Shown here piece after piece: positions 2,784 to 27,783 of a stretch of DNA of 32,000 nt; position 1 is the stretch's first letter, and each line of letters begins with the position of its first letter. The notes below the pieces were generated by a model. That model was not told the origin of the DNA. It was given only the letters and a program-made list of their open reading frames with translations, and ran no database searches. The position numbers and the translations under genes were made by a program. The DNA is from Candidatus Iainarchaeum sp. GTDB taxonomy: Archaea > Iainarchaeota > Iainarchaeia > Iainarchaeales > JACQJH01. Location: NCBI GenBank assembly GCA_016205145.1, contig JACQJH010000002.1, positions 510,001-542,000 of the forward strand, read 5' to 3'.

Positions 2784-3138
2784 AAACCTTTTCTTTTTCG
2801 ACACCTACGCGTTCTTTGAAATTCTCGCGGGCAATCCGGCTTACAAAAGGTTTGAGTCGGCCGACGCCATAACCACTATTTTCAACCTCGCCGAACTGAA
2901 CTTTGCCCTGAAAAGGGAGGGCAAGGGCTTTGCAGACAAGATAACCAAAAAATACGAAGTCCTGCTTGTGGACGTCACAGCCGAAGACGTCTGCGAAGCA
3001 ATGGACTTGCGCATGAAAAACAGAAAACTGTCCATTCCCGACGCAATCGGCTACACCGTGGCAAAACGGCATGGCGCAAAATTCCTGACCGGGGACATGC
3101 AGTTTGAAAAAATGCCCGACACGGAATTCGTGAAATGA
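2776..3138 (+). CDS. vapC: PIN-domain toxin (VapC-like ribonuclease)
   Basis: ORF 2749..3138 trimmed to ATG 2776. The PIN acidic residues occur in the usual order: FFDTYAF, LAELN, IPDAIGY, LTGD. It is coupled to the upstream AbrB-type gene. Confidence 0.8.
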   Translation: MPENLFFFDTYAFFEILAGNPAYKRFESADAITTIFNLAELNFALKREGKGFADKITKKYEVLLVDVTAEDVCEAMDLRMKNRKLSIPDAIGYTVAKRHGAKFLTGDMQFEKMPDTEFVK

Positions 3139-3139
3139 C

Positions 3140-3562
3140 TCAGGCTTGGGCGCGCTTTTTGCCGAAAACCCGGAGCTTTTTGATTTTGCCCTGGAAGGCA
3201 GGTTCAAACGGCAGTTTGAGCAGTTTCAAAAAGTTCTGCACCAGAAAGTCGTCCGTGACGACAGAAAAAGAAGCGCCTTCCGCCTTCAAATCCATGGCCA
3301 GCGCGACAACGCAAAGGTCTGCTTTGCTGAGCTTGAAATAGTTTTTTTCCTTTGCAATCGCAGCCGCCTTCAGCAGGCTTTCTTTTGAAGGGTCGCGCAC
3401 AAAAAGGCTGCCCTGCCTCATGCCAGTTTCAGCAACGCTTTTGGCGCGGAAATCCTTAAGTTCGTCAAGGCACACGTTCGCCATCACGTACTTTTCATTT
3501 TCGCGCAACTCGAAGTTCAAATCATTGATTATGGCGGAAGAATCGAGAAGGTAAAGCATCAA
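3140..3562 (-). CDS. PIN-domain protein, Nob1-like, without a zinc ribbon
   Basis: MMLYLLDSSAII... and ...VVTDDFLVQN resemble the archaeal Nob1-type PIN domain ('LD.SA.I', 'TDD..vQN'). No CxxC pairs are present. The gene is convergent with vapC, leaving only 1 nt between the stop codons. Confidence 0.6.
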   Translation of the reverse strand: MMLYLLDSSAIINDLNFELRENEKYVMANVCLDELKDFRAKSVAETGMRQGSLFVRDPSKESLLKAAAIAKEKNYFKLSKADLCVVALAMDLKAEGASFSVVTDDFLVQNFLKLLKLPFEPAFQGKIKKLRVFGKKRAQA

Positions 3563-3616
3563 AGAAAGCTTATTAAAAAAAGGCTTTATATTATAGTGTT
3601 TTAACCCGGTGAAAAA

Positions 3617-5089
3617 ATGGAAAGCATCGAAGGCACTGCAAGGGCTTTGAGCGAAATCGAAAGGAAGGCGCTCAAACAGCTTGCCGGCGGAAAGGAAAAA
3701 ACCGAGGAAACCGTTTGCTCGGAAGGCGGCATCAACATCGACTCAGTGCGGAGGGCGTTTGCCTGGCTGCAGCAGAAAGGCCTGATTGGGGTCAGGGAAG
3801 AAAAGGCACGCTCGGCCGAACTCACTCCCGCGGGAAAGGACTGCCTTGAAAAAGGCCTGCCCGAAAAAAGGCTTTTGAACTCGGTCCGGAAAAGCGGCGG
3901 AAAGCTTGCAATGAAGGACGCGCTTGCAAAAAGCGGCCTTGGAAAAGCCGAATTCGGATTCGCGCTCGGATGGAACAAGGCGAAAGCGTTCATCATGGTC
4001 TTGCCCTCGGAGCAGGGCCCGGTGCTCGAACTCACGGAAGTCGCAAAAGAATTCGCGCAAAAAAAATCCGCTGAAGAGCAGGCGCTTGAAGCAATTGAAA
4101 CAGGCAGTATGCCGGAACAGGAAATTCTCGCAGAATTGGTGAAAAGGGGCATCTGCCAGGAGAAGGAAACTACGACGCGCACCGCCAAAATCAGCGATGC
4201 CGGCAGAAAGGCGCTTGAAATAATCGAAGGCAAAAGCGCCGCGGAAAGAACTTACAACATTTTCGACCCTGTGCCGAGAATGCTTGCCGGCAAAAGGCAG
4301 CCTTACATCCAGTTCCTTTCGCAGATCCGCAGGAAACTCGTCGAACTCGGCTTCCGGGAAATGCCCACCCGCTTAGTCGAACTGGAATTCTACAATTTCG
4401 ACGTTTTGTTCCAGCCGCAGAACCATCCCGCGCGCACCTGGACCGACACTTACCAGCTCAAGCGGCCGGTGCAGGGAAAACTGCCGGACAAGAAACTGGT
4501 TGCATTGGTGAAACAGGCGCACGAAAGCGGCGGAAAAACGAAAAGTGCCGGGTGGAAATACGGCTGGAGCGAACAAATCGCGCAAAGGCTCATGCCATGC
4601 GCGCACGGCACTGCCGCATCTGCAAGGCAGGTTGCAGGCGGAGTGGAAGTGCCGGGAAAATACTTTGCATTGGCGCGCTGTTACAGGCCCGATGTTGTCG
4701 ATGCGACGCATTTGAACGAGTTCAACCAGATGGAAGGCTTCATTGTCGACGAGAGCTTCAATTTCAGGCACCTGCTTGGAATGCTGAAACAGTTTGCAAC
4801 CGAAATCGCGGGCGCGGAAGAAGTCAAATTTTATCCCGATTACTATCCTTTCACCGAACCATCGGTTCAGCTTTCCGCAAAGCACCCTACGCTTGGCTGG
4901 ATTGAATTCGGCGGAGCCGGCATTTTCAGGCCGGAATTCACCGAACAGTTGGGAGTGAAAGGAAAATGCCTTGCATGGGGCCTCGGCATCGACAGGCTGG
5001 CAATGTTCAAGCTCGGAATCAAGGACATTCGCCAATTGTTTTCAACGGATTTGGAATGGCTGCGGAACGAAAAGATGGTGAGAGTTTGA
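3617..5089 (+). CDS. pheS: Phenylalanine--tRNA ligase alpha subunit (archaeal type)
   Basis: 490 aa. Class II aaRS motif 2 is YRPDVVDATHLNEFNQMEG and motif 3 is AWGLGIDRLAMF. There is an N-terminal winged-helix-like extension. An AT-rich box (CTTTATATTATAG) lies upstream. Confidence 0.95.
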   Translation: MESIEGTARALSEIERKALKQLAGGKEKTEETVCSEGGINIDSVRRAFAWLQQKGLIGVREEKARSAELTPAGKDCLEKGLPEKRLLNSVRKSGGKLAMKDALAKSGLGKAEFGFALGWNKAKAFIMVLPSEQGPVLELTEVAKEFAQKKSAEEQALEAIETGSMPEQEILAELVKRGICQEKETTTRTAKISDAGRKALEIIEGKSAAERTYNIFDPVPRMLAGKRQPYIQFLSQIRRKLVELGFREMPTRLVELEFYNFDVLFQPQNHPARTWTDTYQLKRPVQGKLPDKKLVALVKQAHESGGKTKSAGWKYGWSEQIAQRLMPCAHGTAASARQVAGGVEVPGKYFALARCYRPDVVDATHLNEFNQMEGFIVDESFNFRHLLGMLKQFATEIAGAEEVKFYPDYYPFTEPSVQLSAKHPTLGWIEFGGAGIFRPEFTEQLGVKGKCLAWGLGIDRLAMFKLGIKDIRQLFSTDLEWLRNEKMVRV

Positions 5090-7211: not shown

Positions 7212-8614
7212 AAGAGCTTTGTCTGCTTTCCGGTTTCTTCTTCCGGCGCAGCCTGTTTTTCTTCCGCTTTTTCTGCCGGCTCGGGCACTTGCGTTTTTTG
7301 CAGGAATTTTCCGTCTACTCCCGCAAGGGCAGTCCTTTTTTCCAATAAGGATTTTGCCCTGATTTCCTGCGCCTGCTCCAGAATTGTTTTCACTTTTTTT
7401 GTTTCCGGTTTCGTTTCAAGCATGAAAGCGATTTCGTTTTCGTCCAGGTCGAAAGCCGCGGCGAGCCTTGGCGCAAACTCCTTGTTTTCGAACAGCATTT
7501 TGATGAAGGCGAGGTCGTGCACCATCACTTCTTTCGACGACGAATGCATTTTGCCGCCGATTTTTTTGCACATTCCCGCCTTGAGGGCCTTTTCAGCGCG
7601 GCCCGAGGAAAGCGTTCTCAGCAGCCTTGGGAACTGGTATTTTGCCCAGCCATGGTAGTCGTTGCTCCGCGAAAGCGCAACCCCCGCAGTGGAAAGGTCG
7701 GCGGCGTATTTCATCAGCACGTAATTCTGGCGCCGGAAAATCCTGCCGTTGAAAATGCTTGCCTTCGACAGGCAGTCGAAGCCCGCGGCCAGGTCTTCCT
7801 GCTTGGTGAACTCAACGGGAATGTTTTCCTCGACCCATCTTTCAAGCAGGTCCTGCGGAACCTCGCTTTCAAAGCGCGCACTCTGGCACTCGGCAAAGGT
7901 TTTCGCGCGGAAAATGCGCTGGAGAACGCTGAAAATGTTGTCCTGCCTGTTCCTTGAACCGAGGCCTTTCACGCTTTCCATTGAAACCCCGTCTGCGAGT
8001 GCCTGCAAATCAAGCAGTGCCGAGCGCAAATCACCGGCAGAGTTCTTTGCAAGCTCTTTCAGGGCTTCGTGGTCGAATGGAATGCTTTCCTTTTCGCAGA
8101 TCTCGCCAAGGCGCTTTGCAATTGAAAGGTAATTTATTTTCTTGAACTGCACCAACTCCGCGGCCTGGCGCACAGGCCCGAGCTTCTGGTTCTCGTAAAT
8201 GTCGTTTGCCGTGAGAATGACCGGGTTCTGCGATTCGCGGATGATTGAAAGGATCGCCCCAGCGCCGCCCCTGTCAACTGATTGCAGGCCGTCGATTTCA
8301 TCCAGCAGCACAAGCCGTTTCTGCCCTGAAAGGCTTGAGCCCTGCGAAGCCGCGCCTGCAAGCTTTTCGATTACGTCCTTCGAGCGCAGGTCGCTTGCAT
8401 TCATTTCAAAGACCGACCAGCCGGAAAGTTTCGCGGTCAGCAGTGCAAGGCACGTTTTTCCCGTTCCGGTTGAGCCATACAAAAGCAGTGCCTTGCCTTT
8501 TTTGCCCGCATTCCAGTCGTCAGCCCATCTTCGCACGAATGAAACGGCTTCGGTGTTGCCCACGAATTCCGGAAAGGTTTGCGGTAAAAATTTGTCTGTG
8601 AAAAGCTCAGACAT
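7208..8614 (-). CDS. rfcL: Replication factor C large subunit
   Basis: ORF 7208..8761 trimmed to ATG 8614. It has VRRWADDWNAGKKGKALLLYGSTGTGKT (Walker A), LVLLDEIDG (Walker B) and a Lys/Glu-rich C-terminal tail. Its stop codon overlaps the pheT stop codon (7208-7211). Confidence 0.85.
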   Translation of the reverse strand: MSELFTDKFLPQTFPEFVGNTEAVSFVRRWADDWNAGKKGKALLLYGSTGTGKTCLALLTAKLSGWSVFEMNASDLRSKDVIEKLAGAASQGSSLSGQKRLVLLDEIDGLQSVDRGGAGAILSIIRESQNPVILTANDIYENQKLGPVRQAAELVQFKKINYLSIAKRLGEICEKESIPFDHEALKELAKNSAGDLRSALLDLQALADGVSMESVKGLGSRNRQDNIFSVLQRIFRAKTFAECQSARFESEVPQDLLERWVEENIPVEFTKQEDLAAGFDCLSKASIFNGRIFRRQNYVLMKYAADLSTAGVALSRSNDYHGWAKYQFPRLLRTLSSGRAEKALKAGMCKKIGGKMHSSSKEVMVHDLAFIKMLFENKEFAPRLAAAFDLDENEIAFMLETKPETKKVKTILEQAQEIRAKSLLEKRTALAGVDGKFLQKTQVPEPAEKAEEKQAAPEEETGKQTKLF

Positions 8615-8633
8615 GAAACAATCTTGCCGGCAA

Positions 8634-8650
8634 AAGGGTATTATTTGTTT
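8634..8650. promoter_or_regulatory. Shared AT-rich TATA-like box between divergent rfcL and the GTPase gene
   Basis: GGGTATTATTTGTTTTG lies ~24 nt from the rfcL ATG (8614) and ~26-30 nt from the GTPase ATG (8676). It sits in a 61-nt intergenic region that also contains the 10-nt palindrome TTGCCGGCAA. Confidence 0.4.
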
Positions 8651-8675
8651 TGCAGGCAAAAATTGTGCGATTTGC

Positions 8676-9866
8676 ATGCTGTCAGGCATTGTCGGAAAAC
8701 CGAATTCGGGCAAGAGCACTTTTTTCTGCGCTGCAACAATGGTTGACGCGGAAATCGGCAACAGGCCGTTCGTAACGATAAAGCCGAACCACGGCGTCGG
8801 CTACGTCGTTTCGGAAAATCCCGGAGTCGAAAGCCACAAGGTTCCGCAGCCCGTGAATTACAAATTCGAAAACGGCAAAAGTTATATTCCCGTGAAACTG
8901 CTTGACGTTGCCGGCCTTGTCGAAGGCGCCTGGCAGGGAAAAGGATTGGGCAACCAGTTCCTCAACGACCTGATACAGGCGGATGCCCTCATCCACGTCC
9001 TTGACGCCTCCGGCTCCACCGACGCGGAAGGCAATGCAGTCGGCGCGGGAAACCACGATCCCGCGAAAGACGTGCTGTTCCTTGAGCGCGAAATGGATTA
9101 CTGGATCAAAAGCATCCTGACGAAAAACTGGCAGAAGATTTCCAAGCAGGCGACCGTCACGAAAAAGGCCGCGGAAATCCTCGCATTGCAGCTCACGGGT
9201 TTGGGCATAACCGAGGATGACATAAAAGAGGTGCTGAAAAAGGAAAATTTTTCCGCAGTGCCGGATGAATGGAACGAGGATGAAATTCTTCGGTTCAGTT
9301 CGAAGATTCGCGAAAAAAGCAAGCCCATGCTTATAGCCGCGAACAAGATGGATTTGCCGGCCGCGCGCGAAAACCTTGACAGGCTCAGGCACGATTTTCC
9401 CGGCAAAATTTTCGTGGAATGCTGTGCCGAAGCCGAGCTTGCACTGCGGAAGGCGGACAGGGCCGGCGTGATAAAATATCTGCCGGGCGCAAAAGGCTTT
9501 GAAGTGCTCAAGGACCTGCCCGAAAAGCAGGTGAAGGCGCTTGACTTCATCAAGGCGGCTGTTCTCGAAAAGTTCGGTTCGACCGGCGTGCAGGACTGCC
9601 TGAACAAAGCGGTTTTCGAACTGCTGGACCTGATAGCAGTATATCCCGTGCAGGACCAGAACAAATGGGTTTCAGGCAAGGGAAATTGCCTGCCGGACGC
9701 GTACCTTCTGAAGCGCGGCTCGAAGCCGAAAGACCTTGCGATAAAGATTCACACCGATTTCGGGCCGAAGTACATCGGCGCAATCGACTGCAAAACGGGA
9801 TTGAAGCTGGGAGAGGACGCGGAACTGAAGCACAACGACGTCGTCAAGATACTGCTCAAGAACTAA
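8676..9866 (+). CDS. Obg/YchF-like GTP-binding protein with a C-terminal TGS domain
   Basis: ORF 8199..9866 trimmed to ATG 8676; the upstream part is antisense to rfcL. G1 is GKPNSGKST, G3 is DVAGLV, G4 is NKMD. The 396-aa length matches the archaeal ~397-aa family. The C-terminal segment GEDAELKHNDVVKIL is TGS-like. Confidence 0.85.
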   Translation: MLSGIVGKPNSGKSTFFCAATMVDAEIGNRPFVTIKPNHGVGYVVSENPGVESHKVPQPVNYKFENGKSYIPVKLLDVAGLVEGAWQGKGLGNQFLNDLIQADALIHVLDASGSTDAEGNAVGAGNHDPAKDVLFLEREMDYWIKSILTKNWQKISKQATVTKKAAEILALQLTGLGITEDDIKEVLKKENFSAVPDEWNEDEILRFSSKIREKSKPMLIAANKMDLPAARENLDRLRHDFPGKIFVECCAEAELALRKADRAGVIKYLPGAKGFEVLKDLPEKQVKALDFIKAAVLEKFGSTGVQDCLNKAVFELLDLIAVYPVQDQNKWVSGKGNCLPDAYLLKRGSKPKDLAIKIHTDFGPKYIGAIDCKTGLKLGEDAELKHNDVVKILLKN

Positions 9867-9960
9867 ACAGGAAAAAAAAGAACTAAAAAAAAGCAAAAAA
9901 AAACAGGAAAAGAAAAAAAAAGAAAATAAGAAAGAAACCGGGAAAGAAAAAACCCGGCAA
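9867..9960. repeat. ~95-nt almost pure polypurine (A-rich) tract; on the minus strand it forms multiple oligo-T terminator signals plus a hairpin
   Basis: ACAGGAAAAAAAAGAACTAAAAAAAAGCAAAAAAAAACAGGAAAAGAAAAAAAAAGAAAATAAGAAAGAAACCGGGAAAGAAAAAACCCGG. On the minus strand a CCGGG-N10-CCCGG hairpin is followed by T-runs directly downstream of the 9973 stop codon. Confidence 0.7.
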
Positions 9961-9972
9961 ATGAAAATCTAT

Positions 9973-11604
9973 TCACTGGTTTTCTTTCTTGAACTTCTGC
10001 GCCTTTATTTCAGATTCGATCATTTCCGGCGTCACTGTCTGGTGGGCCAGAAGCTTGTTGCGCACGAACTCGTATGCCTTTACCGTGTCTTCCAGGTCAA
10101 GCTTGCGCTTGAAGCCGAGGCGCGCGATTTCCCTGAAGTACAGGTCGACAATGTCGTGCGCCACTTCGTCAACGCTTTTCTTTGCGATTGTCACTGTTTC
10201 CGGCTGCACTACAACCTTGGAGTCAATGACTTCCTTCAATTGCTGCTTGACTATGTCGAGCTCGTCGAAAATCCTTTTTTCGGTGAGCTTTGCCCTGTCA
10301 TCATCCGATTGTGACAGGAACCTGTCCTCGAACTCGAGCATTTTGCGCCTGAGGTCGTCAACCTGCCTTGGCGAAGAATAGTCAGCCGGCAGAGCCGAAA
10401 CCTTTTCTTCAAGGTCCGAGACTTTCAGCCTGATTTCCTTGACGCTTTCCGCTGAACCTGCTGTTGCAGAGGCTTCGCCGAGCTCGCTTTTCAGCCGGTC
10501 AAGCTTTTCGAAAATCCTCGCTTCGATGCCGTCGACCCTCTCATTGCTTGGCAGGCCAGCAACCTTTTCTTCAAGGCCGGAAACCCTTGCCTTCAGGTCG
10601 TTGACAGTGTCGTGCAAAGCTATTTCCTTGCTTGTCGGCGGAGCCGGCAATGGAATCGCTTCCGCAACTGCTTCCGGCTTTTTAGGCTCGGTTATTTCGG
10701 TTTCGTTAACGGATGGCTTCGCTTCAGCCAGCACGGCAGGCCTTGCTTCGGCAACAACCGCAGGGGTTGGCCTGGCTTTTTCTTCAACCGGCGCTTCAAG
10801 CCTGTCGAGCCTGCTTTCGATTTTGCCGATCCTTATGCCGTGCACTTCCAGAGCAGAGGAAAAGTCGACAAACTTGCCCCGGATCAAAGTCTTTATTTCC
10901 TCGACCGTGCCCTTCGTTTCCTCAGGCGGCCTTGAAACAAGCGCCTTGATTTCTGTCAGGCTCCTGGTGTTGGCTTCGACTACTCTTTCAACCTCGCCGA
11001 ACTTGTCGGAGAAGCCTTTCAAATTATTTTTTGTCTGTGTTTCAAGCTTGTTGAGCGTGGTGGAAACCTTTGAAACCTTCAAAATTTCCTTTTTCAGCTT
11101 TTTCAGGGAACCGGCCTGCCTTTTTTCGCGCTTCAATGCAGCCTTCTTGTTGGCGTCAATCGTTTTTTTGACTGAGCCGACCCTTACAGCGAAAATCTTC
11201 GAGCTGACCGGAAGCGGCTTCCTTCTCTTCACCGGCTTTTTCTGCGCGGGCCTTTTTGCAACCGCCGGCTTTACGACAGCAGGCTTTATTGCCCTTGCTT
11301 TCGCCGGCCTTGCAATCTTTCCTGCAGCCCTGGCGGGCCTTGGTTTTGCAGCAGCCCTTTTAACAGCCCTTTTAACAGAAGCTTTCACGGGCCTTGCAGT
11401 TCTTATGGCGGGTTTTTTCGCGGCCTTTCGCCTTGAAGCTCTTTTCGGCACGGCCTTTGCGACAGGCTGCCTTGCAACACCCTTTGTCTGCTCAAGCTGT
11501 TTCAGCGCCTTTTCCGCCGCCTTCCCGGCTTCAACGGCTTCCTTCACAACCGGCTTGATGTTTTCAATAGCTACCTTTTTTCGGATAAGAGCTCTCTTCG
11601 CCAA
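9973..11604 (-). CDS. Coiled-coil protein with an N-terminal Lys/Arg/Ala/Pro-rich (histone-H1-like) tail
   Basis: This is ORF 9973..11664. The likely start is TTG 11604 (MAKRALIRKK...), preceded by GGGGTGGTG. The first 20 codons of the ORF lie in AT-rich promoter-like sequence. Residues 61-150 are about one-third K/R with no acidic residue. They are followed by heptad-like repeats, including two copies of ...(G/D)LEEKV(A/S)(G/A)LP... Confidence 0.7.
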   Translation of the reverse strand: MAKRALIRKKVAIENIKPVVKEAVEAGKAAEKALKQLEQTKGVARQPVAKAVPKRASRRKAAKKPAIRTARPVKASVKRAVKRAAAKPRPARAAGKIARPAKARAIKPAVVKPAVAKRPAQKKPVKRRKPLPVSSKIFAVRVGSVKKTIDANKKAALKREKRQAGSLKKLKKEILKVSKVSTTLNKLETQTKNNLKGFSDKFGEVERVVEANTRSLTEIKALVSRPPEETKGTVEEIKTLIRGKFVDFSSALEVHGIRIGKIESRLDRLEAPVEEKARPTPAVVAEARPAVLAEAKPSVNETEITEPKKPEAVAEAIPLPAPPTSKEIALHDTVNDLKARVSGLEEKVAGLPSNERVDGIEARIFEKLDRLKSELGEASATAGSAESVKEIRLKVSDLEEKVSALPADYSSPRQVDDLRRKMLEFEDRFLSQSDDDRAKLTEKRIFDELDIVKQQLKEVIDSKVVVQPETVTIAKKSVDEVAHDIVDLYFREIARLGFKRKLDLEDTVKAYEFVRNKLLAHQTVTPEMIESEIKAQKFKKENQ

Positions 11605-11700
11605 AACACCACCCCAACAAAAATTATAACATGAAGTATAGCGCATGTTTATGTTTAAAAACATTTCACCGCGCAGAGTTAATCTGGGGGAGGCGTTTTT

Positions 11701-12081
11701 ATGGTTTTGGACAAGCAGGAACTCGCTTTGGAGATAACAAAAATCTACTATTACAATCTCGCATCAAAGGGCGCCAAGGAAAGCATCAACGCCGAAAACA
11801 TCCTTGACACTTACAATTACGCATTGCTTTTGCTCAACGAAAAGTTGCAGGAAAGAAAGGAAACTGCAAAAGCCGCAACGGAATTGAAACTGCCGGCGGC
11901 GCCGCAGGTTTCCGAAAGCGGTTTTTCGTACACAAACCAGAAGGGCATAACATATTATCTGCACCAGAAGGGCAGGCTGTTTTACTTCTCAAAGGACAGC
12001 AGAAGCTCAATCGTTGTCCCGCAGGGCTACCGCATAAAGGAAAACCCGCGCACCGGCCTGCCGTTCATAACGAAAAAGTGA
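11701..12081 (+). CDS. Hypothetical protein (126 aa)
   Basis: A GGGGGAGG Shine-Dalgarno-like motif lies 9 nt upstream of ATG 11701. The N-terminal ~40 aa resemble the C-terminal domain of the divergent coiled-coil protein. The C-terminal segment ITYYLHQKGRLFYFSKD...VPQGYRIKENPRTGLPFITKK is a motif I recall only vaguely from other archaeal hypothetical proteins. Confidence 0.6.
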   Translation: MVLDKQELALEITKIYYYNLASKGAKESINAENILDTYNYALLLLNEKLQERKETAKAATELKLPAAPQVSESGFSYTNQKGITYYLHQKGRLFYFSKDSRSSIVVPQGYRIKENPRTGLPFITKK

Positions 12082-12084
12082 GGG

Positions 12085-12939
12085 CTATTCGCCAATTGAC
12101 TTTGTCAGGTCGGGCCTCACAAGCCTTCCGAGCACGTTCAGGCGCCTGAGGCTTTCAAGCAGCTGTTCCCGTGAAATGCCCAGGCGCATGACATGCGGCT
12201 CGGAAAACAGGCCGTCAAGTGTTTCAATGCCTTCCGTGCGGCACGCGCGCAAAACTTTCAAATCCTGCATTGCCTTATGCCGCGCCGGGTCGTTTGTTTC
12301 AAGCGAAAACACTGCATGGCTTTTCGGCTCCGGCCGACCGGAAGCAAACGGGCCTTCCCTGACAAGCAAATCGAATTCCCTTTTGTTCCAGGACGCGCCA
12401 TAAGCGCGCGCAATCACAGCCAGTACATTCCGTTCAAATCCAACATTATCCGGATTGGAAATAACTATTTTTGCCCCTTTGCGGTTCAGAAGGCTGCGCA
12501 ACAACGACAATGGCAGGCCACCGCCCCAATACAGCGGAAAAGGCTCGAATGAAACGCTCCAGTCAAACCTGTTTTTGGAAAGTGGAATCCTTGACGCTTC
12601 ACGCGTCCTGAACGAACGGATGCGCGTGCCCTCAGGATTCTGCTCCTGCAAAAGCCTTGCACGCCGCACCATGCCGGCGGAAGCGTCCGTGAAATGGACT
12701 TCCGCCTGTTCCGCCAAAGCCTTTGCCCAATTGCCGGTGTAGCCGGCGAAAAAAAGAATTTTGCTGCCAGGCTCAATGCCGAGATGATGTAAAAGGCGCG
12801 GATCCGCAGGCACTGTTGCCTGGGCCGCTCTCACGCTCGGCACAGACCAAGGATCCGCATCAGCAAAGATTTTCACCTCGTGCGGAACAAGAAAACGCCG
12901 TCGCCTTGCACGCGGTGGTTCCGAAGCCAAACCAATCAC
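12085..12939 (-). CDS. Hypothetical protein, possibly a Rossmann/SAM-methyltransferase-like fold (tentative)
   Basis: The GTG start overlaps the cdc6 stop (GTGA at 12936-12939), so the two genes are probably co-transcribed. KILFFAGYTGNWAKALAEQAEVHFTDAS is weakly reminiscent of methyltransferase motif I followed by an acidic residue. The function is not established. Confidence 0.55.
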   Translation of the reverse strand: MIGLASEPPRARRRRFLVPHEVKIFADADPWSVPSVRAAQATVPADPRLLHHLGIEPGSKILFFAGYTGNWAKALAEQAEVHFTDASAGMVRRARLLQEQNPEGTRIRSFRTREASRIPLSKNRFDWSVSFEPFPLYWGGGLPLSLLRSLLNRKGAKIVISNPDNVGFERNVLAVIARAYGASWNKREFDLLVREGPFASGRPEPKSHAVFSLETNDPARHKAMQDLKVLRACRTEGIETLDGLFSEPHVMRLGISREQLLESLRRLNVLGRLVRPDLTKSIGE

Positions 12940-14111
12940 GCCTTTTTCTGCGCGCCGGCAACATTCGGGGAATTTCCTGCCGCGTGCAGCTTTTTCATTT
13001 CCTCTGAAAGCAATGCTGAAGAAACCGCGAGTGAAATCTTGCGGGACTTGCCATGCATTCCGCTTTCAACGAGCGGCGCGCTGACAAGGTTCAAATGCTC
13101 AAGCTTTGAAACAATGTCGCGAAATCTCCTCAATGAAAGCTTTTGCCCGGACTTCTCCGAAAACGCCTTGAAAAGCTCGCCTGACAGCGCATCGTCATGC
13201 GAACAAAGCAATTGCAAAACCAGGAGTTCGGAATCATTCAGCGAGGGAAGGACTTTTTTGAACGGGTGCTCGTCGACAAGCGCGAACGCCTTTTTCAGGT
13301 GCAGAATGGAAACCTTCTGCGAATTCTCCTTTTCAGCTTCCTTGCCCGCGCGCCACAAACATTCAATCGCAATCCTCGCGTCCCCGCCAAGGCGCGAGGC
13401 ATGGCCGGCCGCGACGTTTATGACTTCATCGTCAAGGCTTCCCGGCAGGAACGCATACTTGCACCTTTCCGCAAGTATGTCCTTCAGCTGCTTCGGTGAA
13501 TAGGGGTTGAAGGCAATGTCCTGCACGTGCAATGAACTTCTCACGCGCTCGTCAAGCCTTGAAACCAGTGCGGGGTCGTTTGAAATCAGTATGAGGCCGA
13601 AGCGCTTGTCGCAAAACTCTATGACGCGCAGGAGGTCATAGAAAACCTTGGCCTCTTCCGGCTCGGCAAGCAGCTGTTCCGCCTCATCCAGCACAACTAT
13701 CGGAGCAAAATCCGCTTTTTTGAGCATTTCAAGGATTTTCGAATACACCTCGTCGGTTGCGATCCCGCGCCTCGGCACAGCCGCCTTCAAAAAGTTTGCG
13801 ATTGCCGACAGGATCGAGTGGCGGGAATTGTACTCAAAGCAGTTCAGGTAAAGGCCTTTCGCCCTGTCCGAAAATTCCTCAAGCTCGTTCAAAACGAATT
13901 TGACGCTCGCGGTCTTTCCCGTTCCGGTTTTCCCGAAAACAAAAACGTGCTGCGGCTTCTTGCCCTCTGAAACCGGTTTCAATGCAAAGACAAGCGCGTC
14001 GATTTCCGCATCCCTGTGCGGCAGGACAGCCGGCACATGCTCAGGGTACAGCACTGCCTCGCTGCGGAAAACCTGAGCTTCCCTGCCCTTTCTCTCGAAA
14101 ACATTCGGCAT
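12936..14111 (-). CDS. cdc6: Orc1/Cdc6 replication initiator
   Basis: 391 aa. LPHRDAEIDAL..., Walker A is FGKTGTGKT, Walker B is VVLDEAE, and there is a C-terminal winged-helix region. A TATA-like GGATAAAAAT (14134-14143; minus-strand reading ATTTTTATCC) lies ~25 nt upstream of the ATG. Confidence 0.93.
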   Translation of the reverse strand: MPNVFERKGREAQVFRSEAVLYPEHVPAVLPHRDAEIDALVFALKPVSEGKKPQHVFVFGKTGTGKTASVKFVLNELEEFSDRAKGLYLNCFEYNSRHSILSAIANFLKAAVPRRGIATDEVYSKILEMLKKADFAPIVVLDEAEQLLAEPEEAKVFYDLLRVIEFCDKRFGLILISNDPALVSRLDERVRSSLHVQDIAFNPYSPKQLKDILAERCKYAFLPGSLDDEVINVAAGHASRLGGDARIAIECLWRAGKEAEKENSQKVSILHLKKAFALVDEHPFKKVLPSLNDSELLVLQLLCSHDDALSGELFKAFSEKSGQKLSLRRFRDIVSKLEHLNLVSAPLVESGMHGKSRKISLAVSSALLSEEMKKLHAAGNSPNVAGAQKKA

Positions 14112-14148
14112 GCAGAAAAGATATTGCTTAAAACGGATAAAAATGCAT

Positions 14149-14381
14149 CGGGCGGCGGTTTCGTCCGCAGCCGGTTCCGTCCGGCTGGTTCGGAACCAAG
14201 GCGTATCACTGTTGTGATACGCCGAGTAAGTAACATTAAAGTTTTCGGGGGCGTGCGAGACGCGGAGCTCCCTGGTCGGGATTAAGGCTTATTGCTGCTA
14301 CAATAAGCCGGGTAAGCGACAGTAAAAAAAATTTGGAGCTGCAGTAAAAGTACCCGCTGCGCGAGAGCCCGTCTGCCCGCA
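14149..14381 (+). ncRNA. Candidate structured RNA 'c1' (~230 nt), family unknown
   Basis: Hairpins at 14168-14187, 14200-14223 (10 bp, TGTT loop), 14247-14272 and 14286-14309. The 5' end (14149-14176) can pair with the 3' end (14352-14380) over ~24 bp with bulges. The G.U pairs only work on the + strand. A TATA-like GCTTAAAA lies at 14124-14131. The first ~75 nt are homologous to element c2. Confidence 0.45.
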
Positions 14382-14426
14382 AAAAAAAAACAAGCTTTTA
14401 ATACAACCTGAAACAAGATTATTGGC

Positions 14427-14606
14427 ATGAGGTTCGGCGAAGGCATTTTTGACAGGGTTTCGGCTGAAAAAATCATGCTCGGCATCGTTCTGCTTATTGC
14501 AATAATCGCCTTGCTCGCAATAATCGCGAATTCCGCGAACACCACGGTTTCAAGCGCCTCGCATTCGGTTTCCGCGATTTCCGGCGGCCTCAACAAGCTT
14601 GCGTGA
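14427..14606 (+). CDS. 59-aa single-pass membrane protein, below the ORF-track length cutoff
   Basis: Hand translation is MRFGEGIFDRVSAEKIMLGIVLLIAIIALLAIIANSANTTVSSASHSVSAISGGLNKLA. A TATA-like CTTTTAATAC (14395-14404) lies ~23 nt upstream of the ATG, consistent with a leaderless mRNA. The stop lies 4 nt before the ATG of the next gene. Confidence 0.45.
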   Translation: MRFGEGIFDRVSAEKIMLGIVLLIAIIALLAIIANSANTTVSSASHSVSAISGGLNKLA

Positions 14607-14610
14607 TTGC

Positions 14611-15438
14611 ATGGCAAAACAGGGACTTTTGTTTGGCACGGCGGGAATGCCCCTCTCCTACAAAGGCAGGAGCGAGGGCGCAATGCCTTTCATCAAAAGC
14701 CTCGGCCTGGATGCAATGGAAATAGAGTTCGTGCGCGGCGTTTACATGAAAGAGGCGCAGGCGGAGGCATTGGGAAAGGCGGCGGAGGAAAACGGCATCA
14801 CTTTGACGGTGCACGCGCCATATTACATCAACCTGAATTCGGAAAAAAAGCAGACTGTCGGCATGAGCAAAAGCTTCGTCTTTGAAAGCGCGCGCATCGG
14901 CGCGATAGCCGGCGCAAAATCCATCTGCTTCCACGCAGGCTATTACGTCAAGGCGACGCCGGAGGAAACGTACGCGAACATAAAAAAGGCGGTCTCGGAA
15001 ATACTTGACAAAATGAAATCGGAGGGCGTGAAAACCGTTCTCGCGCCGGAAGTCAGCGGAAAGAAAAGCCAGTTCGGGTCGCTCGAAGAAGTCATTGCTT
15101 TGGGAAAGGAACTGGATGGCGTGCAGCCTTGCATCGATTTCGCGCACCTGCACGCGCGGACCGGCGGCAAAATGACTTCGCTGCAGGAATTCGAAGCAGT
15201 GCTCAGGCAGTTGCCCAAAAAATGGCTCGATTTCCTGCACGTCCACATGTCAGGCATGAATTTCGGCGAAAAAGGCGAAAAAAACCACCTCGTTTTCGGC
15301 GACCCCGGCAACAGGTTCCACTTCGAGCCGGCAATCCAGGCATTCAAAAAGCTCGGAGTGAAAGGCGTTGTGGTCTGCGAATCGCCGAACGTCGAGGAAG
15401 ACGCATTGAAAATGAAAAACTGTTATTTACAGAAATAA
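14611..15438 (+). CDS. Endonuclease IV-like TIM-barrel protein (AP endonuclease family 2)
   Basis: ORF 14599..15438 trimmed to ATG 14611. It has HAPYYINLNS, CFHAGYY, APEVSG, CIDFAHLHA and HVHMSG...GEKGEKNHL, which are the metal-ligand-like motifs of the Nfo / xylose-isomerase-like fold. 275 aa. Confidence 0.8.
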   Translation: MAKQGLLFGTAGMPLSYKGRSEGAMPFIKSLGLDAMEIEFVRGVYMKEAQAEALGKAAEENGITLTVHAPYYINLNSEKKQTVGMSKSFVFESARIGAIAGAKSICFHAGYYVKATPEETYANIKKAVSEILDKMKSEGVKTVLAPEVSGKKSQFGSLEEVIALGKELDGVQPCIDFAHLHARTGGKMTSLQEFEAVLRQLPKKWLDFLHVHMSGMNFGEKGEKNHLVFGDPGNRFHFEPAIQAFKKLGVKGVVVCESPNVEEDALKMKNCYLQK

Positions 15439-15440
15439 TC

Positions 15441-15625
15441 CAGCCAAGCCGGATTTCGCCACCAGTCCGGCCTATGCGAGCAGGGCAGTGCCTTGCAAAC
15501 CCCTTGCGTGGTATTGCTTGCGCAATACCACTTATGCACAAACAGCATACTCGGCGTATTGCAACAGCAATACGCCTTAGTTCGTACCAGCCGGACGAGA
15601 CGGCTGCGGGCGAAACCGCCGGGAA
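15441..15625 (-). ncRNA. Candidate structured RNA 'c2' (~175-185 nt), homologous to c1 and in inverted orientation
   Basis: On the minus strand CCGG-CGG-TTTCGCC (15622-15609) pairs with GGCGAAA-T-CCGG (15460-15449). Hairpins lie at 15588-15606, 15553-15576 (10 bp, TGTT loop), 15533-15549 (5-bp stem TATGC/GCATA, 7-nt loop) and 15508-15531 (10 bp, GCAA loop). An AT-rich box lies at 15650-15659 and a T-rich stretch (TTATTTCT) at the 3' end. Confidence 0.45.
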
Positions 15626-15636
15626 ATATATATAAA
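15624..15636 (+). promoter_or_regulatory. TATA-like box for the leaderless gene at 15660
   Basis: AAATATATATAAA ends 23 nt before ATG 15660. Confidence 0.5.
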
Positions 15637-15659
15637 CATGGCCGCGAAATAATTATTCT

Positions 15660-15938
15660 ATGCACTATTCGCCAGGCAGCCCGGCTGACCGGTGGTATAA
15701 CCGGCTTGGGGCATGGATAACGAGGAGCATCCAGCGCTTTGTCGGGTTCCTGTTCCTGCTGCTTGCAGCCGGCATAATCATCGGCGTCTTTGTCGCGACA
15801 AACAGGCCCCAGTACATAATCCCTGTTGTTCTCGCGCCAATCCTTATCGCATTGCTGTCCTATTATAGCAGGGGCATCGCAATCCTGATTTTTATACTGT
15901 TCATTCTGGGCTTTTTCGGTTTCTTTGCAGTACTGTGA
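15660..15938 (+). CDS. Membrane protein (92 aa, about 3 TM segments)
   Basis: ATG ORF with hydrophobic segments FVGFLFLLLAAGIIIGVFV, IIPVVLAPILIALL and IAILIFILFILGFFGFFAVL. It lies directly upstream of the ArsR-type gene. Confidence 0.55.
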   Translation: MHYSPGSPADRWYNRLGAWITRSIQRFVGFLFLLLAAGIIIGVFVATNRPQYIIPVVLAPILIALLSYYSRGIAILIFILFILGFFGFFAVL

Positions 15939-15948
15939 GCGGAGCAAA

Positions 15949-16509
15949 ATGGACGTAACATTGTCGCACAGCGATTTCAAGGCGTTGTCCTCGGGCACGC
16001 GCGCGAAAATCCTGAAGCTGCTCGCGGAACGCAATCACACTATGTCCGAGATTTCAAAAAAGCTCGGCCTTGCAGCGCCCACAGTGAAACAGCACCTTGA
16101 CATGCTGTCCGGAGCCGGGCTCATAGAACCGGTCGGGGAAAACAGGAAATGGAAGTATTATGCTCTGTCAAGGAAAGGCAGGGGCATAATCCAGAAAAAC
16201 GACTCTACAAACATCCTCATTGTAATGGCGGCAACGTTCGTTGCATTGGTTGTCATGCTTTTCAATCTTGTCGGCCAGTTCGGCAGAACTGCCGTGCCAT
16301 TGCAGGCAATGCAGAAGACCGCCTCCGAAAGCGGCATTGCCGGAAGCGCCGCCGATGCCCTTCGGACGGAAACTGCCACAGTGCCGCAGACGATTCCTGC
16401 ACCGGCGGGCTTCGACCCAATTGTCCTGAACGCCATAATAGTCATTGCCCTTGTGATTGCCCTGGCATATCTTCTTTCGCGATTGTCGAAAAAAGGCGAA
16501 GGAATTTAA
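15949..16509 (+). CDS. ArsR-family winged-helix regulator with two C-terminal transmembrane segments
   Basis: ORF 15925..16509 trimmed to ATG 15949, with GGAG 4 nt upstream. FKALSSGTRAKILKLLAERNHTMSEISKKLGLAAPTVKQHLDMLSGAGLI is an ArsR/SmtB-type HTH. It is followed by ILIVMAATFVALVVMLFNLVGQF and IVLNAIIVIALVIALAYLL. Confidence 0.8.
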   Translation: MDVTLSHSDFKALSSGTRAKILKLLAERNHTMSEISKKLGLAAPTVKQHLDMLSGAGLIEPVGENRKWKYYALSRKGRGIIQKNDSTNILIVMAATFVALVVMLFNLVGQFGRTAVPLQAMQKTASESGIAGSAADALRTETATVPQTIPAPAGFDPIVLNAIIVIALVIALAYLLSRLSKKGEGI

Positions 16510-16533
16510 GGTTGGCCTTCCGGCAATCCTTTG

Positions 16534-17112
16534 ATGCGCGGAAAAGGCTTTTTCGCTTTTGTTCTGGTAATTTTCTTCCTGCTCGCCGCAACGGAGTCGG
16601 CGGGCAGGCAATCCTCCTCGTTCCGCTCGTTCTCCGAAGCGCATCGCATTGCAATGGAGCTTGAAAGCCAGAACATGCTCCGGTCGAACGTTGAAAACAA
16701 CCTCGATTTTGTCGTGGAAAAAACAATGCGCAGGCAGATTCTCCTCGGAAGCACGGATCCGGCGCAATTGAAGCTTGCGCTGGACGAAAAGGTTTTTTCC
16801 TTTTTCCTGGAAACGCAAAAAAATGCACGGCCGCGAAACCTCGAATTCTCCGGAGCAACGGTTTACGGAAACCGGTATTCTGAAAACGCCGGCGCGGCGG
16901 CGCAGGAAAAACTTTCAATGGAATTCATTGGCCGGAATTCGGTTGCGTTCGTGGAACTGGCCGGCGGGGCATGGATTGCGGAATACCATTTTTCCGGCGG
17001 GCTTTACAGGAACAGCGCAGTGATTGGCCGGATTGTCTCCGAAGACAATGAAACCATGACGGTTTTTTTCCTGCCTGCAGGGTACTCTAAAACAGTTGTG
17101 GTGGTCGGTTGA
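16534..17112 (+). CDS. Pilin-like protein with a class III (type IV pilin-like) signal peptide
   Basis: MRGKG/FFAFVLVIFFLLAA is a short basic N-terminus followed by a hydrophobic helix. It is the first of four translationally coupled genes. Confidence 0.55.
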   Translation: MRGKGFFAFVLVIFFLLAATESAGRQSSSFRSFSEAHRIAMELESQNMLRSNVENNLDFVVEKTMRRQILLGSTDPAQLKLALDEKVFSFFLETQKNARPRNLEFSGATVYGNRYSENAGAAAQEKLSMEFIGRNSVAFVELAGGAWIAEYHFSGGLYRNSAVIGRIVSEDNETMTVFFLPAGYSKTVVVVG

Positions 17113-17450
17113 GCAATGGCCAGGCAAGCGTGGAAGCGATGGCCGCGATTGCGCTGATTCTTTCCGCTGCGGCGTTTTTCCTGTCCGGGCAGGCGCTTTT
17201 GGAGAACGCGGTTTCCGAAGCCGAAAAAAAGCTTGTCGCGAAAGCCGAAGCGCAGTCATGCGCGATTGTGGCGGACGCGGTTTTCAGCAATTCCCTCGGC
17301 TTTTCCGGAAAATACGGATGCGCTCCAACCGCCGGGGGAGTTGAAGGAATGGCTTTCGGAAAAACCGCTTCGGAAAAAACCCTGTCGGAAAAGTCCGCGG
17401 CATCAGGAGATGGGGGCCTTGAAACAATGGCACCGGAACATTATGCCTGA
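17109..17450 (+). CDS. Pilin-like protein with a class III signal peptide
   Basis: The TTG start overlaps the upstream stop (TTGA). (M)SNG/QASVEAMAAIALILSAAAFF has Gly-Gln at the putative cleavage site and Glu at +5. Confidence 0.6.
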   Translation: MSNGQASVEAMAAIALILSAAAFFLSGQALLENAVSEAEKKLVAKAEAQSCAIVADAVFSNSLGFSGKYGCAPTAGGVEGMAFGKTASEKTLSEKSAASGDGGLETMAPEHYA

Positions 17451-19726: not shown

Positions 19727-19844
19727 AAAAACTATCTGACATAGCTCGGCCTGAAATCAAAACTATGGCAGGGGGCTCCGCCCCCTCGCACGCCCCTGGA
19801 AAAAAAACTATCTCACGTAGCTTGGCCTGAAATCCGAATAGTGG
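19727..19844. repeat. Direct repeat: a degenerate non-coding copy (19727-19768) of the last 37 nt of cdc48, its stop codon and the following AAAAA (19803-19844)
   Basis: Repeat A is AAAAACTATCTGACATAGCTCGGCCTGAAATCAAAACTATGG and repeat B is AAAAACTATCTCACGTAGCTTGGCCTGAAATCCGAATAGTGG. 34 of 42 positions are identical. A GC hairpin, AGGGGGC-TCC-GCCCCCT (19770-19786), lies between them. Confidence 0.7.
19800..19807 (-). terminator. Oligo-T (T8) immediately after the cdc48 stop codon
   Basis: The A8 run on the + strand at 19800-19807 abuts the stop codon (19808-19810). Archaeal termination commonly uses oligo-T tracts. Confidence 0.6.
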
Positions 19845-26045: not shown

Positions 26046-26792
26046 TCAAAGCCGGGCATTTCCGGAATTAAATTCTATGACCTTATTCCACAGTATAGCA
26101 CCATTTTTGTTACAAAAATCGTTAATGAACTCTCCGGTAAACTTGTTTATAACTTCGCTCTTGCGTTGTCTGAAAGAATCATTGAGTTTTTTAGATCGAT
26201 ATCCTATCGGGTCAACTATCAGAATATAGAAATCCTTGGTTCCGCTTATCCTATTCCAGAAATTCTGACCGCACATTTGGGTTATGAAACCTTTCTTCAC
26301 CAATGTTTTCTGATTTCCATACGATATGCCCAAAATGCACTGAACATCAGATATATTCCTGTTCTGCTTCACTATACGCATTGCGGTTTTGAAATCATTT
26401 TCCAATGCTTTCCATTGGCTGCTATTGCCCCAATTCAATCCAGACTTTACAGATACCAGATGTCTCGTTTTCTTTGTTTGAAATTCAAAATCAATCCCTG
26501 ATGCAGAAGATTTCGTTGCGTTAAGGGTTTTTTCCGCGACAAAAATTGCCAAGTGCTCCAAAAATTCTCCAAAAATCTCTTCCTCTGATGAAGATAACTT
26601 GGCGTCCAGTATAGATGTAACTAGCTCGCTTGCGGTTACAAGATTTTTCGCCCTATATAAGTAAGGATTCTTCCGCTTCAAGAGTTCTTTGAGGCTTGTT
26701 TTTTCCAAACTCTGTAGGCGTGCGGTGTGAAATTCTGCTATGTGTTCTTTCACAAAATCTTCCACTTCGTCCAATTGGATTTTTTTCATCAA
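26046..26792 (-). CDS. Probable type II restriction endonuclease (partner of the adjacent methyltransferase)
   Basis: It lies immediately downstream of, and overlaps, the MTase gene. There is a PD-(D/E)xK-like arrangement (GIDFEF ... HLVSVKSG). KNPYLYRAKN ... LSSSEEEIFGEFLEHLAIF resembles a type II REase family I recall only vaguely (TdeIII/Eco47II-like), so the assignment is unconfirmed. Confidence 0.55.
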   Translation of the reverse strand: MMKKIQLDEVEDFVKEHIAEFHTARLQSLEKTSLKELLKRKNPYLYRAKNLVTASELVTSILDAKLSSSEEEIFGEFLEHLAIFVAEKTLNATKSSASGIDFEFQTKKTRHLVSVKSGLNWGNSSQWKALENDFKTAMRIVKQNRNISDVQCILGISYGNQKTLVKKGFITQMCGQNFWNRISGTKDFYILIVDPIGYRSKKLNDSFRQRKSEVINKFTGEFINDFCNKNGAILWNKVIEFNSGNARL

Positions 26793-27687
26793 ATAACCTC
26801 TTTTCTGCTACCTTTTTATATTCTGACAATATGTCAATCATAAGGTAATTTCTGTTGAGCCTAAGGCATGCTACTCCCGTAGTCCCAGAACCTGCAAAAG
26901 GGTCCAAAACCAAATCATTTTCTTTTGTAAATAGGCGGATAAACCACGTCGGGAGGTCAACCGGAAACACAGCACTATGGTTCTTGTTGCCGCATTCCGT
27001 CGGCATGTGCAGAACATTTGAAGGATAAACTTTGGATTTACCGACCCAGTTTGCTATCTTCTTGCCAAATCCGCTGCCAACCTTTGAGGTGGCGCGTCTC
27101 AAATCACTGGCGCTTAAATTCGCGAGACGCGTTTTGGACCATTCCCCAACAGGCACCATGACCTCTTCCTGATACATTCTGAACTTTTTTGATTTGTTGA
27201 ACTGCAGGCACCGTTCCCAAGCATCCCTAAACCTGTTCGGCCACTTGCCAGGGTGGGTATTCTTCTTGTGCCAAATGAACTCTTCAGTCCATAGCCAACC
27301 CTGAGTCTTTAACTCTTTTATCAAATCCAAGACGTAAGTATGGCGTTCCCCGTTTTCAACCCTTTCTTTGATATTAAGAATAAATGTGCCTGTGGGCTTC
27401 AAAACCCGCAAAAATTCTTTTGATTTAGGCAAAAACCATTCCACATATTCATCCGGTGCGATGCCCCCATACGTGTTTTTCCTGCTGTCGGCATATGGGG
27501 GGGAGGTCACAATGAGATTCACTGAGTTATCGGGAACTTCTTTTAGCATTTGCCCACAGTCGCCAGTGAGATACTGGTTTACGAATGCATTGGGCGCGTT
27601 TTTACCCATATTTTCTATTATGCCGGATTGTCCTATTAAAGCATAGTTATCAGGATAAACCGTTTTTGTTTCAGAACTACCCAACAT
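26653..27687 (-). CDS. DNA methyltransferase, N4-cytosine/N6-adenine type (beta class)
   Basis: The catalytic motif IV is LIVTSPPY, near the N-terminus. The AdoMet motif I is VLDPFAGSGTTGVA, near the C-terminus. The reading frame continues 140 nt into the REase gene. Confidence 0.9.
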   Translation of the reverse strand: MLGSSETKTVYPDNYALIGQSGIIENMGKNAPNAFVNQYLTGDCGQMLKEVPDNSVNLIVTSPPYADSRKNTYGGIAPDEYVEWFLPKSKEFLRVLKPTGTFILNIKERVENGERHTYVLDLIKELKTQGWLWTEEFIWHKKNTHPGKWPNRFRDAWERCLQFNKSKKFRMYQEEVMVPVGEWSKTRLANLSASDLRRATSKVGSGFGKKIANWVGKSKVYPSNVLHMPTECGNKNHSAVFPVDLPTWFIRLFTKENDLVLDPFAGSGTTGVACLRLNRNYLMIDILSEYKKVAEKRLFDEKNPIGRSGRFCERTHSRISHRTPTEFGKNKPQRTLEAEESLLI

Positions 27688-27783
27688 TATCCACCCATAA
27701 AAAATTGCAAAAGTGATTTTTAAATGCTTGCATGGCGGATTTCCGCTCAGATTAAATAAACCGATTGGCGCGGCTACCGCGGA

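Follow-up and report, generated by a model that had tools for sequence, protein, structure and literature searches.

The ERIC/IRU elements of enterobacteria are intergenic, approximately 100-250 nt long and strongly hairpin-forming, and they are conserved in sequence across species while their positions differ, with longer forms produced by extra internal segments. BIME/REP and the pneumococcal BOX elements are modular and extragenic; they combine short hairpins whose flanking bases are conserved, and single units occur alone. Prokaryotic MITEs are short, non-coding, and present or absent between close genomes; they include the MITE-like C/D-box sRNA elements of Pyrobaculum calidifontis, which may be transcribed and straddle the border between repeat and sRNA gene (PMC6009581). 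IS200/IS605-derived PATEs are hairpin-rich and strand-specific, and they are without clear terminal inverted repeats.

These traits are shared by c1 and c2, two elements of a genome of the Iainarchaeota (Diapherotrites, DPANN), which we consider, at a rough probability of 55%, to be members of a lineage-specific, non-coding family of mosaic hairpin repeats. The family nevertheless differs from each described class. It has no sequence relation to ERIC/IRU, its host is archaeal, and it is built of several reusable cassettes rather than of a single long imperfect palindrome. Compared to BIME/REP, it lacks the 5' GTAG motif (its flanks are AAGG / GNGTAAG), its units are co-oriented rather than alternating, the host is again archaeal, and we found no RAYT-type gene. 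Unlike MITEs, its terminal inverted repeats are marginal, and it shows no clear target-site duplication, no known parent IS, and no C/D boxes. In contrast to PATEs, it has no common left-flank tetranucleotide, carries many internal hairpins instead of two subterminal ones, and was accompanied by no TnpA or TnpB that we could find. To our knowledge, DPANN genomes are small and tightly packed and almost nothing is known of their repeats or non-coding RNAs; our literature search turned up no account of elements like these in DPANN.

Within the window (the whole 32-kb stretch of DNA analyzed), c1 occupies positions 14150-14381 on the + strand and c2 positions 15438-15625 on the - strand. Reading along its own strand, c1 consists of a 5' block termed M1 (14152-14192), with two short hairpins of which hairpin A lies at 14168-14187; hairpin B1 (14200-14223), a 10-bp stem with a TGTT loop and conserved flanks AAGG / GAGTAAG; a G hairpin (GGGGGCGTGCGAGACGCGGAGCTCCC; 14247-14272); hairpin B2 (14286-14309); and a 3' tail (14352-14381) that is weakly complementary to the 5' block and may form a closing helix with it or represent a degenerate terminal inverted repeat. 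Element c2 consists of the 5' block (15583-15621, with hairpin A at 15588-15606), hairpin B1 (15553-15576), a small hairpin, hairpin B2' (GTGGTATTGC-GCAA-GCAATACCAC; 15508-15531), an H hairpin, and a 3' tail. The hairpin B copies score 50.1 bits (B1) and 44.5 bits (B2) in c1, and 51 bits (B1) and 35.6 bits (B2') in c2 with a hairpin B covariance model. The sequences on which the original prediction was built are present in the window where it placed them, and the shared opening block, judged by eye to be about four-fifths identical, proved to be 85.5% identical over 76 columns (c1 14153-14228 against c2 15621-15548; blastn E 4e-17 within the window), the inverted arms being recovered independently by a repeat search. 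The compensatory stem change (TATCAC/GTGATA versus TATTGC/GCAATA) and the retention of hairpin A in both elements (CAGCCGG/CCGGCTG versus CAGCCG/CGGCTG) were likewise borne out, and the pattern GGCGTATYRC-N4-GYRATACGCC occurs three times, compared to 0.01 occurrences expected from shuffles. The further hairpins downstream, which had been described as different in sequence, are instead further copies of one hairpin type common to both elements.

Both elements fold far below their shuffles (z of -4.1 for c1 and -4.8 for c2), and the opposite strands also fold better than shuffles. Across the seven copies of hairpin B, double changes are found at 7 of the 10 base pairs, 97% of the cells are paired, not one of 69 cells holds a G.U pair, and the covariation score was reached by none of 500 shuffles. 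The helices by which each element was predicted to close on itself fared less well; complementarity between the ends is present, but it is marginal against chance (75 of 2000 shuffles reach the score of c1 and 110 of 2000 that of c2), the closing helices have no counterpart in the homologous element L085e described below, and neither L085e nor the third element of the window shows end-to-end complementarity.

This third element, W300 (approximately 209-396, - strand), contains a B-type stem that encloses hairpins at 322-344 and 296-317, plus another related hairpin. Additionally, a lone G hairpin stands at 19768-19801 (- strand), directly after the CDC48 stop codon. A further element, L085e, is 280 nt long, lies on contig L085, and is collinear with c1 over the entire length of c1. 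Its 5' block is 97% identical (38/39) to that of c2 and 90% identical to that of c1 (the c1 and c2 blocks being 85% identical to each other), a 59-nt stretch of it is 91.5% identical to W300, and its G hairpin module, to which that of c1 is homologous as well, is 97% identical (33/34) to the lone hairpin. Units within c1, c2, and L085e all have the same orientation, and c1, c2, W300, and L085e are non-coding, 188-280 nt long, and free of ORFs. Contig L085 probably derives from the sister genome discussed below, an assignment based on a common metagenome and a tetranucleotide correlation of 0.95. Besides L085e, the relative also carries a family segment after a tRNA. We considered L085e as a conserved gene downstream of HerA and rejected this; the HerA of L085 has no match above 70% identity, and the loci of its best relatives, which are only 70% identical, are free of the element.

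Contigs L018 and L117 of the sister genome align collinearly with the window at a nucleotide identity of 70-82%. The sister lacks c2, having a 44-nt spacer at the matching site, and W300 is absent from the matching site on L117. At the c1 site on L018 there are approximately 24-30 nt, including a significant remnant of c1 (3 of 2000 shuffles reach its score), and the same search at the empty c2 and W300 sites was not significant. The remnant indicates that at least c1 is older than the split and hence that the pattern is partly one of loss rather than insertion. Short spacers are found at these sites in the more distant L001 too, and the sister probably bears a family element at another locus, namely that on L085. 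Between both genomes the modules are 91-97% identical, which exceeds the coding identity of 70-82%. Further afield, 17 Iainarchaeota cdc6 loci showed short spacers with no sequence similarity and no comparable hairpins, the hairpin B covariance model recovered the known copies and nothing in approximately 300 kb of other Iainarchaeota loci, and neither a scan of IMG/VR with four module patterns nor a blastn search of plasmids and phages gave a match. A metagenome scan with a 5'-block pattern returned 94 matches, of which only that on L085 extends past the 20-nt pattern; the others are therefore best read as chance. In the sequences searched, the family thus appears to be lineage-specific.

Element c2 is flanked by the 6-nt direct repeat GAAATA (15432-15437 and 15623-15628), the sole candidate target-site duplication of a full element; c1 and W300 have no clear target-site duplication, and the left flanks (...GCATC, ...TATTTC, ...TTTTCC, ...GGTCGCA, and ...TTTTTTTT) hold no common target motif. 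A 32-nt direct repeat of the 3' end of CDC48 (19727-19758 and 19803-19834) brackets the lone G hairpin, and a 14-nt duplication of the tRNA 3' end brackets the post-tRNA segment of the relative; such gene-end duplications are unlike a fixed short duplication. Short-read unitigs assembled from this genome stop at 351, 14201, 15520, 15576, and 19797, all inside or adjoining family hairpins, with the unitig 14201-15520 ending within the repeats, and a 13-kb unitig without elements runs unbroken.

Taken together, the presence of more than two copies with common modules, their non-syntenic presence and absence, the lineage restriction, a module identity above that of coding DNA, the gene-end duplications at cassettes, the covariation of hairpin B without G.U pairs, and the unitig breaks at hairpins lead us to favor a family of mosaic repeats, and c1 and c2 resemble small mobile or repeat DNA more closely than a dedicated RNA-gene pair or an invertible switch. 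Counted against the mosaic-repeat reading are the marginal terminal inverted repeats, the single candidate target-site duplication, the absence of any transposase or recombinase gene from the 32-kb window, the partial loss implied by the c1 remnant, and a copy count of three full elements and one lone cassette in approximately 41 kb of the source genome. The original prediction had held that many copies with target-site duplications would make the element a MITE. The family is short, non-coding, and found in several copies across the window and the relative, and the copies are dispersed and differ in presence between the sisters, which brings it some way towards a MITE; the data do not extend to sharply defined terminal inverted repeats, to target-site duplications, or to a high copy number.

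On the mosaic-repeat reading, the members of the family are assembled from cassettes comprising a 5' block with two short hairpins, one or two 10-bp hairpins with a conserved TGTT loop and conserved flanks AAGG ... GNGTAAG, a G-rich hairpin, and optional extra hairpins. Elements and single cassettes lie in intergenic gaps, either between divergent leaderless promoters or just past stop codons or a tRNA, and they come and go within the time over which sister species diverge. They would presumably spread or be reshuffled as DNA, possibly by a putative trans-acting enzyme recognizing hairpin and flanks on one strand, as in REP or IS200-type elements, or by recombination that brings elements in along with neighboring gene ends. 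What keeps the stems perfect may be selection on single-stranded hairpins, the correction of palindromes through template switching, or a combination of the two.

The alternative that survives best, although we hold it to be a doubtful one, is that c1 and c2 are paralogous, independently transcribed structured small RNAs whose copies arise by duplication and are quickly lost; such multi-hairpin RNAs could, for example, bind or titrate a protein via conserved loops and flanks. Strong stem covariation with conserved loops and flanks argues for this, as does the strandedness of the folding: the sense strand is more stable than the antisense strand by 5-17 kcal/mol in 5 of 5 elements, the MFE structures hold 38 sense G.U pairs versus 16 antisense, and two one-sided C-to-U changes in an L085e hairpin yield sense-strand G.U pairs. 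This bias is at least as compatible with an RNA transcript as with a DNA element and is thus counted against the repeat reading. Covariation and strand bias are not proof of RNA, however, since single-stranded DNA hairpins and palindrome correction would be expected to leave that pattern too. Furthermore, T-runs end W300 and L085e on the sense strand, and the high identity of the modules relative to that of coding DNA could reflect purifying selection. Elements c1 and c2 also match no Rfam family, so an RNA family would be new; Rfam 15 gave no match at gathering thresholds in the 32-kb window, scans by E-value (13900-15900, 100-500, and L085) returned, apart from a true tRNA outside the element, only chance miRNA and snoRNA matches with E above 0.07, and ARAGORN, in agreement with the original prediction, found no tRNA-like fold. 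A K-turn, an H/ACA or C/D box sRNA, and a T-arm-like 5' block were weighed by eye and set aside.

Against small RNAs, the loci are unconserved in the sister, where c1 has decayed to a remnant, single cassettes stand alone after genes, no homologues were found in the other Iainarchaeota loci searched, and the lack of G.U pairs in hairpin B is unusual for so variable an RNA stem. The TATA-like boxes that had been proposed upstream of each element fail as element promoters: the sister, although free of the elements, already has the AT-rich boxes found ahead of c1, c2, and W300, and likewise the T-run of W300, all of which serve neighboring genes, and the conserved boxes are thus assigned to the leaderless promoters of cdc6 and a 92-aa gene. 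Dedicated promoters, considered by eye, were accordingly set aside. What stands of the first reading in the original prediction is an undescribed structured family, with no Rfam match, covarying stems, and strand-biased folding; a private RNA-gene pair tied to cdc6 and EndoIV does not.

It is rather unlikely, yet worth stating, that the family represents a new archaeal mobile structured element, whose strand-specific cassettes would act as RNA or single-stranded DNA and would move or recombine, module by module, between intergenic sites and even sister species, sometimes with copies of gene 3' ends, by means of an enzyme so far linked to none of the known repeat classes. If true, a streamlined DPANN genome would in effect harbor "mobile RNA-gene modules".

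We regard as improbable a role for the elements as cis-acting parts of neighboring transcripts, that is, as 3'-UTR stabilizers, terminator helpers, or promoter insulators domesticated from repeats. The genes concerned are cdc6/orc1 (12936-14111, - strand; Pfam Cdc6_lid, AAA_22, and Cdc6_C), which neighbors c1 and lies outside it, a 59-aa small ORF conserved in the sister genome (14427-14606, + strand), and an EndoIV-like TIM-barrel gene (14611-15438, + strand; Pfam AP_endonuc_2, E 2e-34) whose orthologue is 79% identical. Such a role is suggested by the placement of the lone G hairpin and of the segment after the tRNA, both directly downstream of a gene in sense orientation, and by c2 abutting the EndoIV stop codon while c1 and W300 fill gaps between divergent promoters. 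However, c2 runs antisense to any read-through from EndoIV, and c1 is situated ahead of the promoter of the small ORF and hence outside the small-ORF mRNA. In the sister genome, these genes function with no elements beside them, and termination in archaea requires T-runs only.

The second reading of the original prediction, that c1 and c2 form a DNA inverted repeat that inverts or mobilizes the 1.3-kb segment with the small ORF and EndoIV, is very improbable: the copies are indeed inverted and 1.3 kb apart, but their longest exact common run is 12 nt, the window contains no recombinase or transposase gene, elements are found singly elsewhere, and the enclosed genes keep the same, ancestral place and orientation in the sister, which has no c2 and only the remnant of c1. 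On the mosaic-repeat reading, the position of the two elements around these genes beside cdc6 is incidental. Equally hard to credit is a replication origin for which the repeats would be ORB-like recognition elements. Inverted repeats with dyad symmetry adjoining cdc6/orc1 would suit such an origin, but the repeats are absent beside cdc6 in the sister and in the 17 other Iainarchaeota cdc6 loci, and their modules are also present at sites remote from cdc6. What lies between them is 1.3 kb of coding DNA rather than an AT-rich unwinding element, and their stems covary rather than keep one binding sequence.

Between the sisters, this modular family of hairpins is conserved better than the genes and yet located at different loci, which shows that DPANN genomes, too, carry dynamic non-coding DNA. 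The family offers a concrete target in the search for a mobilizing enzyme or an RNA-protein system that would be new. On the practical side, the elements fragment short-read assemblies and are mistakable for origins, riboswitches, or RNA genes.

The original prediction described two homologous hairpin-rich elements, c1 and c2, and the sequences it quoted were found in the window where it had placed them. The elements (c1 at 14150-14381, + strand; c2 at 15438-15625, - strand) have as gene neighbors cdc6 (- strand), ORFs of 59 aa and 92 aa, a TIM-barrel gene resembling EndoIV and an ArsR-type regulator. The 5' block common to c1 and c2, read on their respective strands, was confirmed at 85.5% identity over 76 alignment columns (E 4e-17 within the window), and the inverted arms were recovered independently by a repeat search of the window. 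Hairpin B, a 10-bp stem with a TGTT loop, is present twice in c1 and twice in c2, and the pattern GGCGTATYRC-N4-GYRATACGCC matched three times in the window vs. 0.01 matches expected from shuffles. Perfect hairpins with stems of at least 9 bp were concentrated in c1, c2 and one more site (296-344), and both elements folded with far better energy than shuffled controls on both strands. The Rfam search proposed along with the prediction matched no family at gathering or permissive thresholds, and no tRNA was found.

The best-supported interpretation is that c1 and c2 belong to a lineage-specific family of hairpin repeats, mosaic in build and strand-specific, and flank the small ORF and EndoIV genes by coincidence. 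A metagenome scan with a 20-nt pattern from the 5' block gave 94 matches, with similarity extending past the pattern itself only in contig L085. Indirect evidence assigns L085 to the close relative (sister genome) of the source genome: it shares its metagenome of origin with a sister-genome contig and its tetranucleotide profile correlates with that genome at 0.95; the HerA of L085 is at most 70% identical to its relatives in the protein collection. The L085 element (~1264 to 985, minus strand) is collinear with c1, running from the 5' block through hairpin B1, a G-rich (G) hairpin and hairpin B2 to G(A/G)GTAAGC, with two additional hairpins nested within B1. These nested hairpins recur at window 284-342 (91.5% over 59 nt) as part of a third window element, W300 (~209-396, minus strand), which occupies the gap where the promoters of a metallo-beta-lactamase-fold gene and of the gene for a secreted 271-aa protein diverge. 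The G hairpin of the L085 element has a solitary copy, 97% identical, at window 19768-19801, immediately 3' of the CDC48 stop codon, and a diverged copy of hairpin A, one of the two short hairpins of the 5' block, lies downstream of a tRNA on L085 with the compensatory change CAACCG/CGGTTG. The recurrence of modules in W300, in the L085 element and as lone copies indicates that the family is modular, with single cassettes able to stand alone. These comparisons drew on ~41 kb from the source genome and ~18 kb from its sister; searches of IMG/VR, of plasmid and phage collections and of 20 further Iainarchaeota loci totaling ~300 kb returned no family members. In its behavior the family is comparable to ERIC, BIME/REP, BOX and MITE-like elements; membership of the classical MITEs is not established, the family's terminal repeats being marginal and its target duplication equivocal, with no known parent transposase. 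The family lacks those signatures of REP and IS200-PATE elements that were open to testing.

Proteins encoded on sister-genome contigs L018 and L117 are 75-79% identical to those of the window, and the contigs align collinearly with its positions 7823-17413 and 1-5087, the nucleotide identity being 70-82%. The site of c2 is there occupied by a 44-nt spacer and that of W300 (on L117) by ~14-24 unrelated nt, absences which fit gain or loss equally well. The c1 site holds ~24-30 nt containing ACACATAAGCCGGAACGCGAC, whose alignment score with ACAATAAGCCGGGTAAGCGAC of c1 was reached by 3 of 2000 shuffles; this remnant implies that c1 is, at least in part, older than the split and was mostly deleted in the sister lineage. 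The more distant relative (L001) likewise has short spacers. Modules shared by the source and sister genomes are 91-97% identical, above the coding identity of the two. At the c2 boundary, the EndoIV C-terminus diverges exactly where c2 starts (window 15420-15438, ...NCYLQK*, vs. L018 6395-6425, ...KYYRAGGPRG*), the window stop codon falling inside a GAAATA repeat.

Signs of turnover surround the cassettes. The lone G hairpin (34 nt) lies between two directly repeated 32-nt copies of the CDC48 3' end (29/32 identical; window 19727-19834), and all three differences between the copies are synonymous and at third-codon positions, suggesting that both were once the end of the gene, as if a foreign allele of that end had come in along with the hairpin. 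A third, shorter copy, ACGTCAGATAA, follows. The final 14 nt of the L085 tRNA have an exact second copy 111 nt downstream, the two bracketing a cassette-bearing segment. This tRNA (within 1283-1518, minus strand; detected by Rfam, missed by ARAGORN) has a 55-nt intron, a 28-nt piece of which (hairpin AAAACTTTT...AAAAGTTTT) has an inverted copy (89%) in the post-tRNA segment that also holds the diverged hairpin A. Logan short-read unitigs of the source genome (three runs, SRR12113383-85) terminate at 351, 14201, 15520, 15576 and 19797, all five within or adjoining family hairpins, and an unbroken 13-kb unitig spanning 27530-32000 and 8.9 kb past the window contains no family module. Such breaks fit repeated or polymorphic sequence at the k-mer level; a drop in coverage at hairpins is an alternative.

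The main rival, already raised in the original prediction, is that the family consists of small structured RNAs, and stem covariation, strand bias and strong cross-genome conservation speak for it. In an alignment of seven copies, 97% of hairpin B cells showed Watson-Crick pairing, 7 of the 10 pairs had two-sided changes and none a one-sided (G.U) change, and neither shuffles nor slid registers attained the covariation score. Conservation is higher in the AAGG and GNGTAAG flanks and in the TGTT loop than in the stem. In all five whole elements the sense strand, as defined by homology, folded 5-17 kcal/mol better than its complement, with 38 vs. 16 G.U pairs in the minimum free energy structures, which argues for one specific strand in single-stranded form, RNA and single-stranded DNA fitting equally. 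Template-switch correction of quasi-palindromes is an established mechanism and could keep the stems perfect. The 5'/3' helices predicted to close c1 and c2 were slightly above chance, though only marginally, and other members have none. Against small RNAs stand the loss of loci in the sister genome, the occurrence of cassettes alone and the absence of promoter signals of the elements' own: the AT-rich, TATA-like boxes first attributed to the elements are conserved in the element-free sister genome, and their spacing suits leaderless transcription of cdc6, the small ORF and the 92-aa and 271-aa genes, whose promoters they may be.

The second original proposal, that c1 and c2 invert or mobilize the 1.3-kb segment between them, is unlikely, despite their inverted arms. 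The longest exact run shared by c1 and c2 is 12 nt, the sister genome has the same gene order and orientation with c2 absent and c1 only a remnant, and the window encodes no recombinase: a Pfam scan of the other ORFs of at least 110 aa returned PheRS, RFC, a GTPase, CDC48, topoisomerase I, NrdD, a PIN-domain protein and a restriction-modification pair, the remainder having no Pfam match, and neither a transposase nor a recombinase was among them. A role of the repeats as a replication origin is also unlikely, because none of the relatives carries them beside cdc6 and the window has them at other sites too.

All relatives of the window cdc6 fall within Iainarchaeota/Diapherotrites (DPANN). Its end overlaps by 4 nt a 284-aa methyltransferase gene (12085-12939) that the sister genome lacks, a 126-aa gene there directly abutting cdc6 (indel ~900 nt). 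The public cdc6 call in L018 (4119-5564, 481 aa) reads antisense across the conserved 59-aa ORF and probably has an over-extended start; the actual intergenic gap is ~108 nt, not 54 nt. Finally, window 26046-27687 codes for an EcoO109I-like type II restriction endonuclease and an N6/N4 DNA methylase at 39-46% GC vs. ~52%, a restriction-modification island that was probably gained by horizontal transfer.
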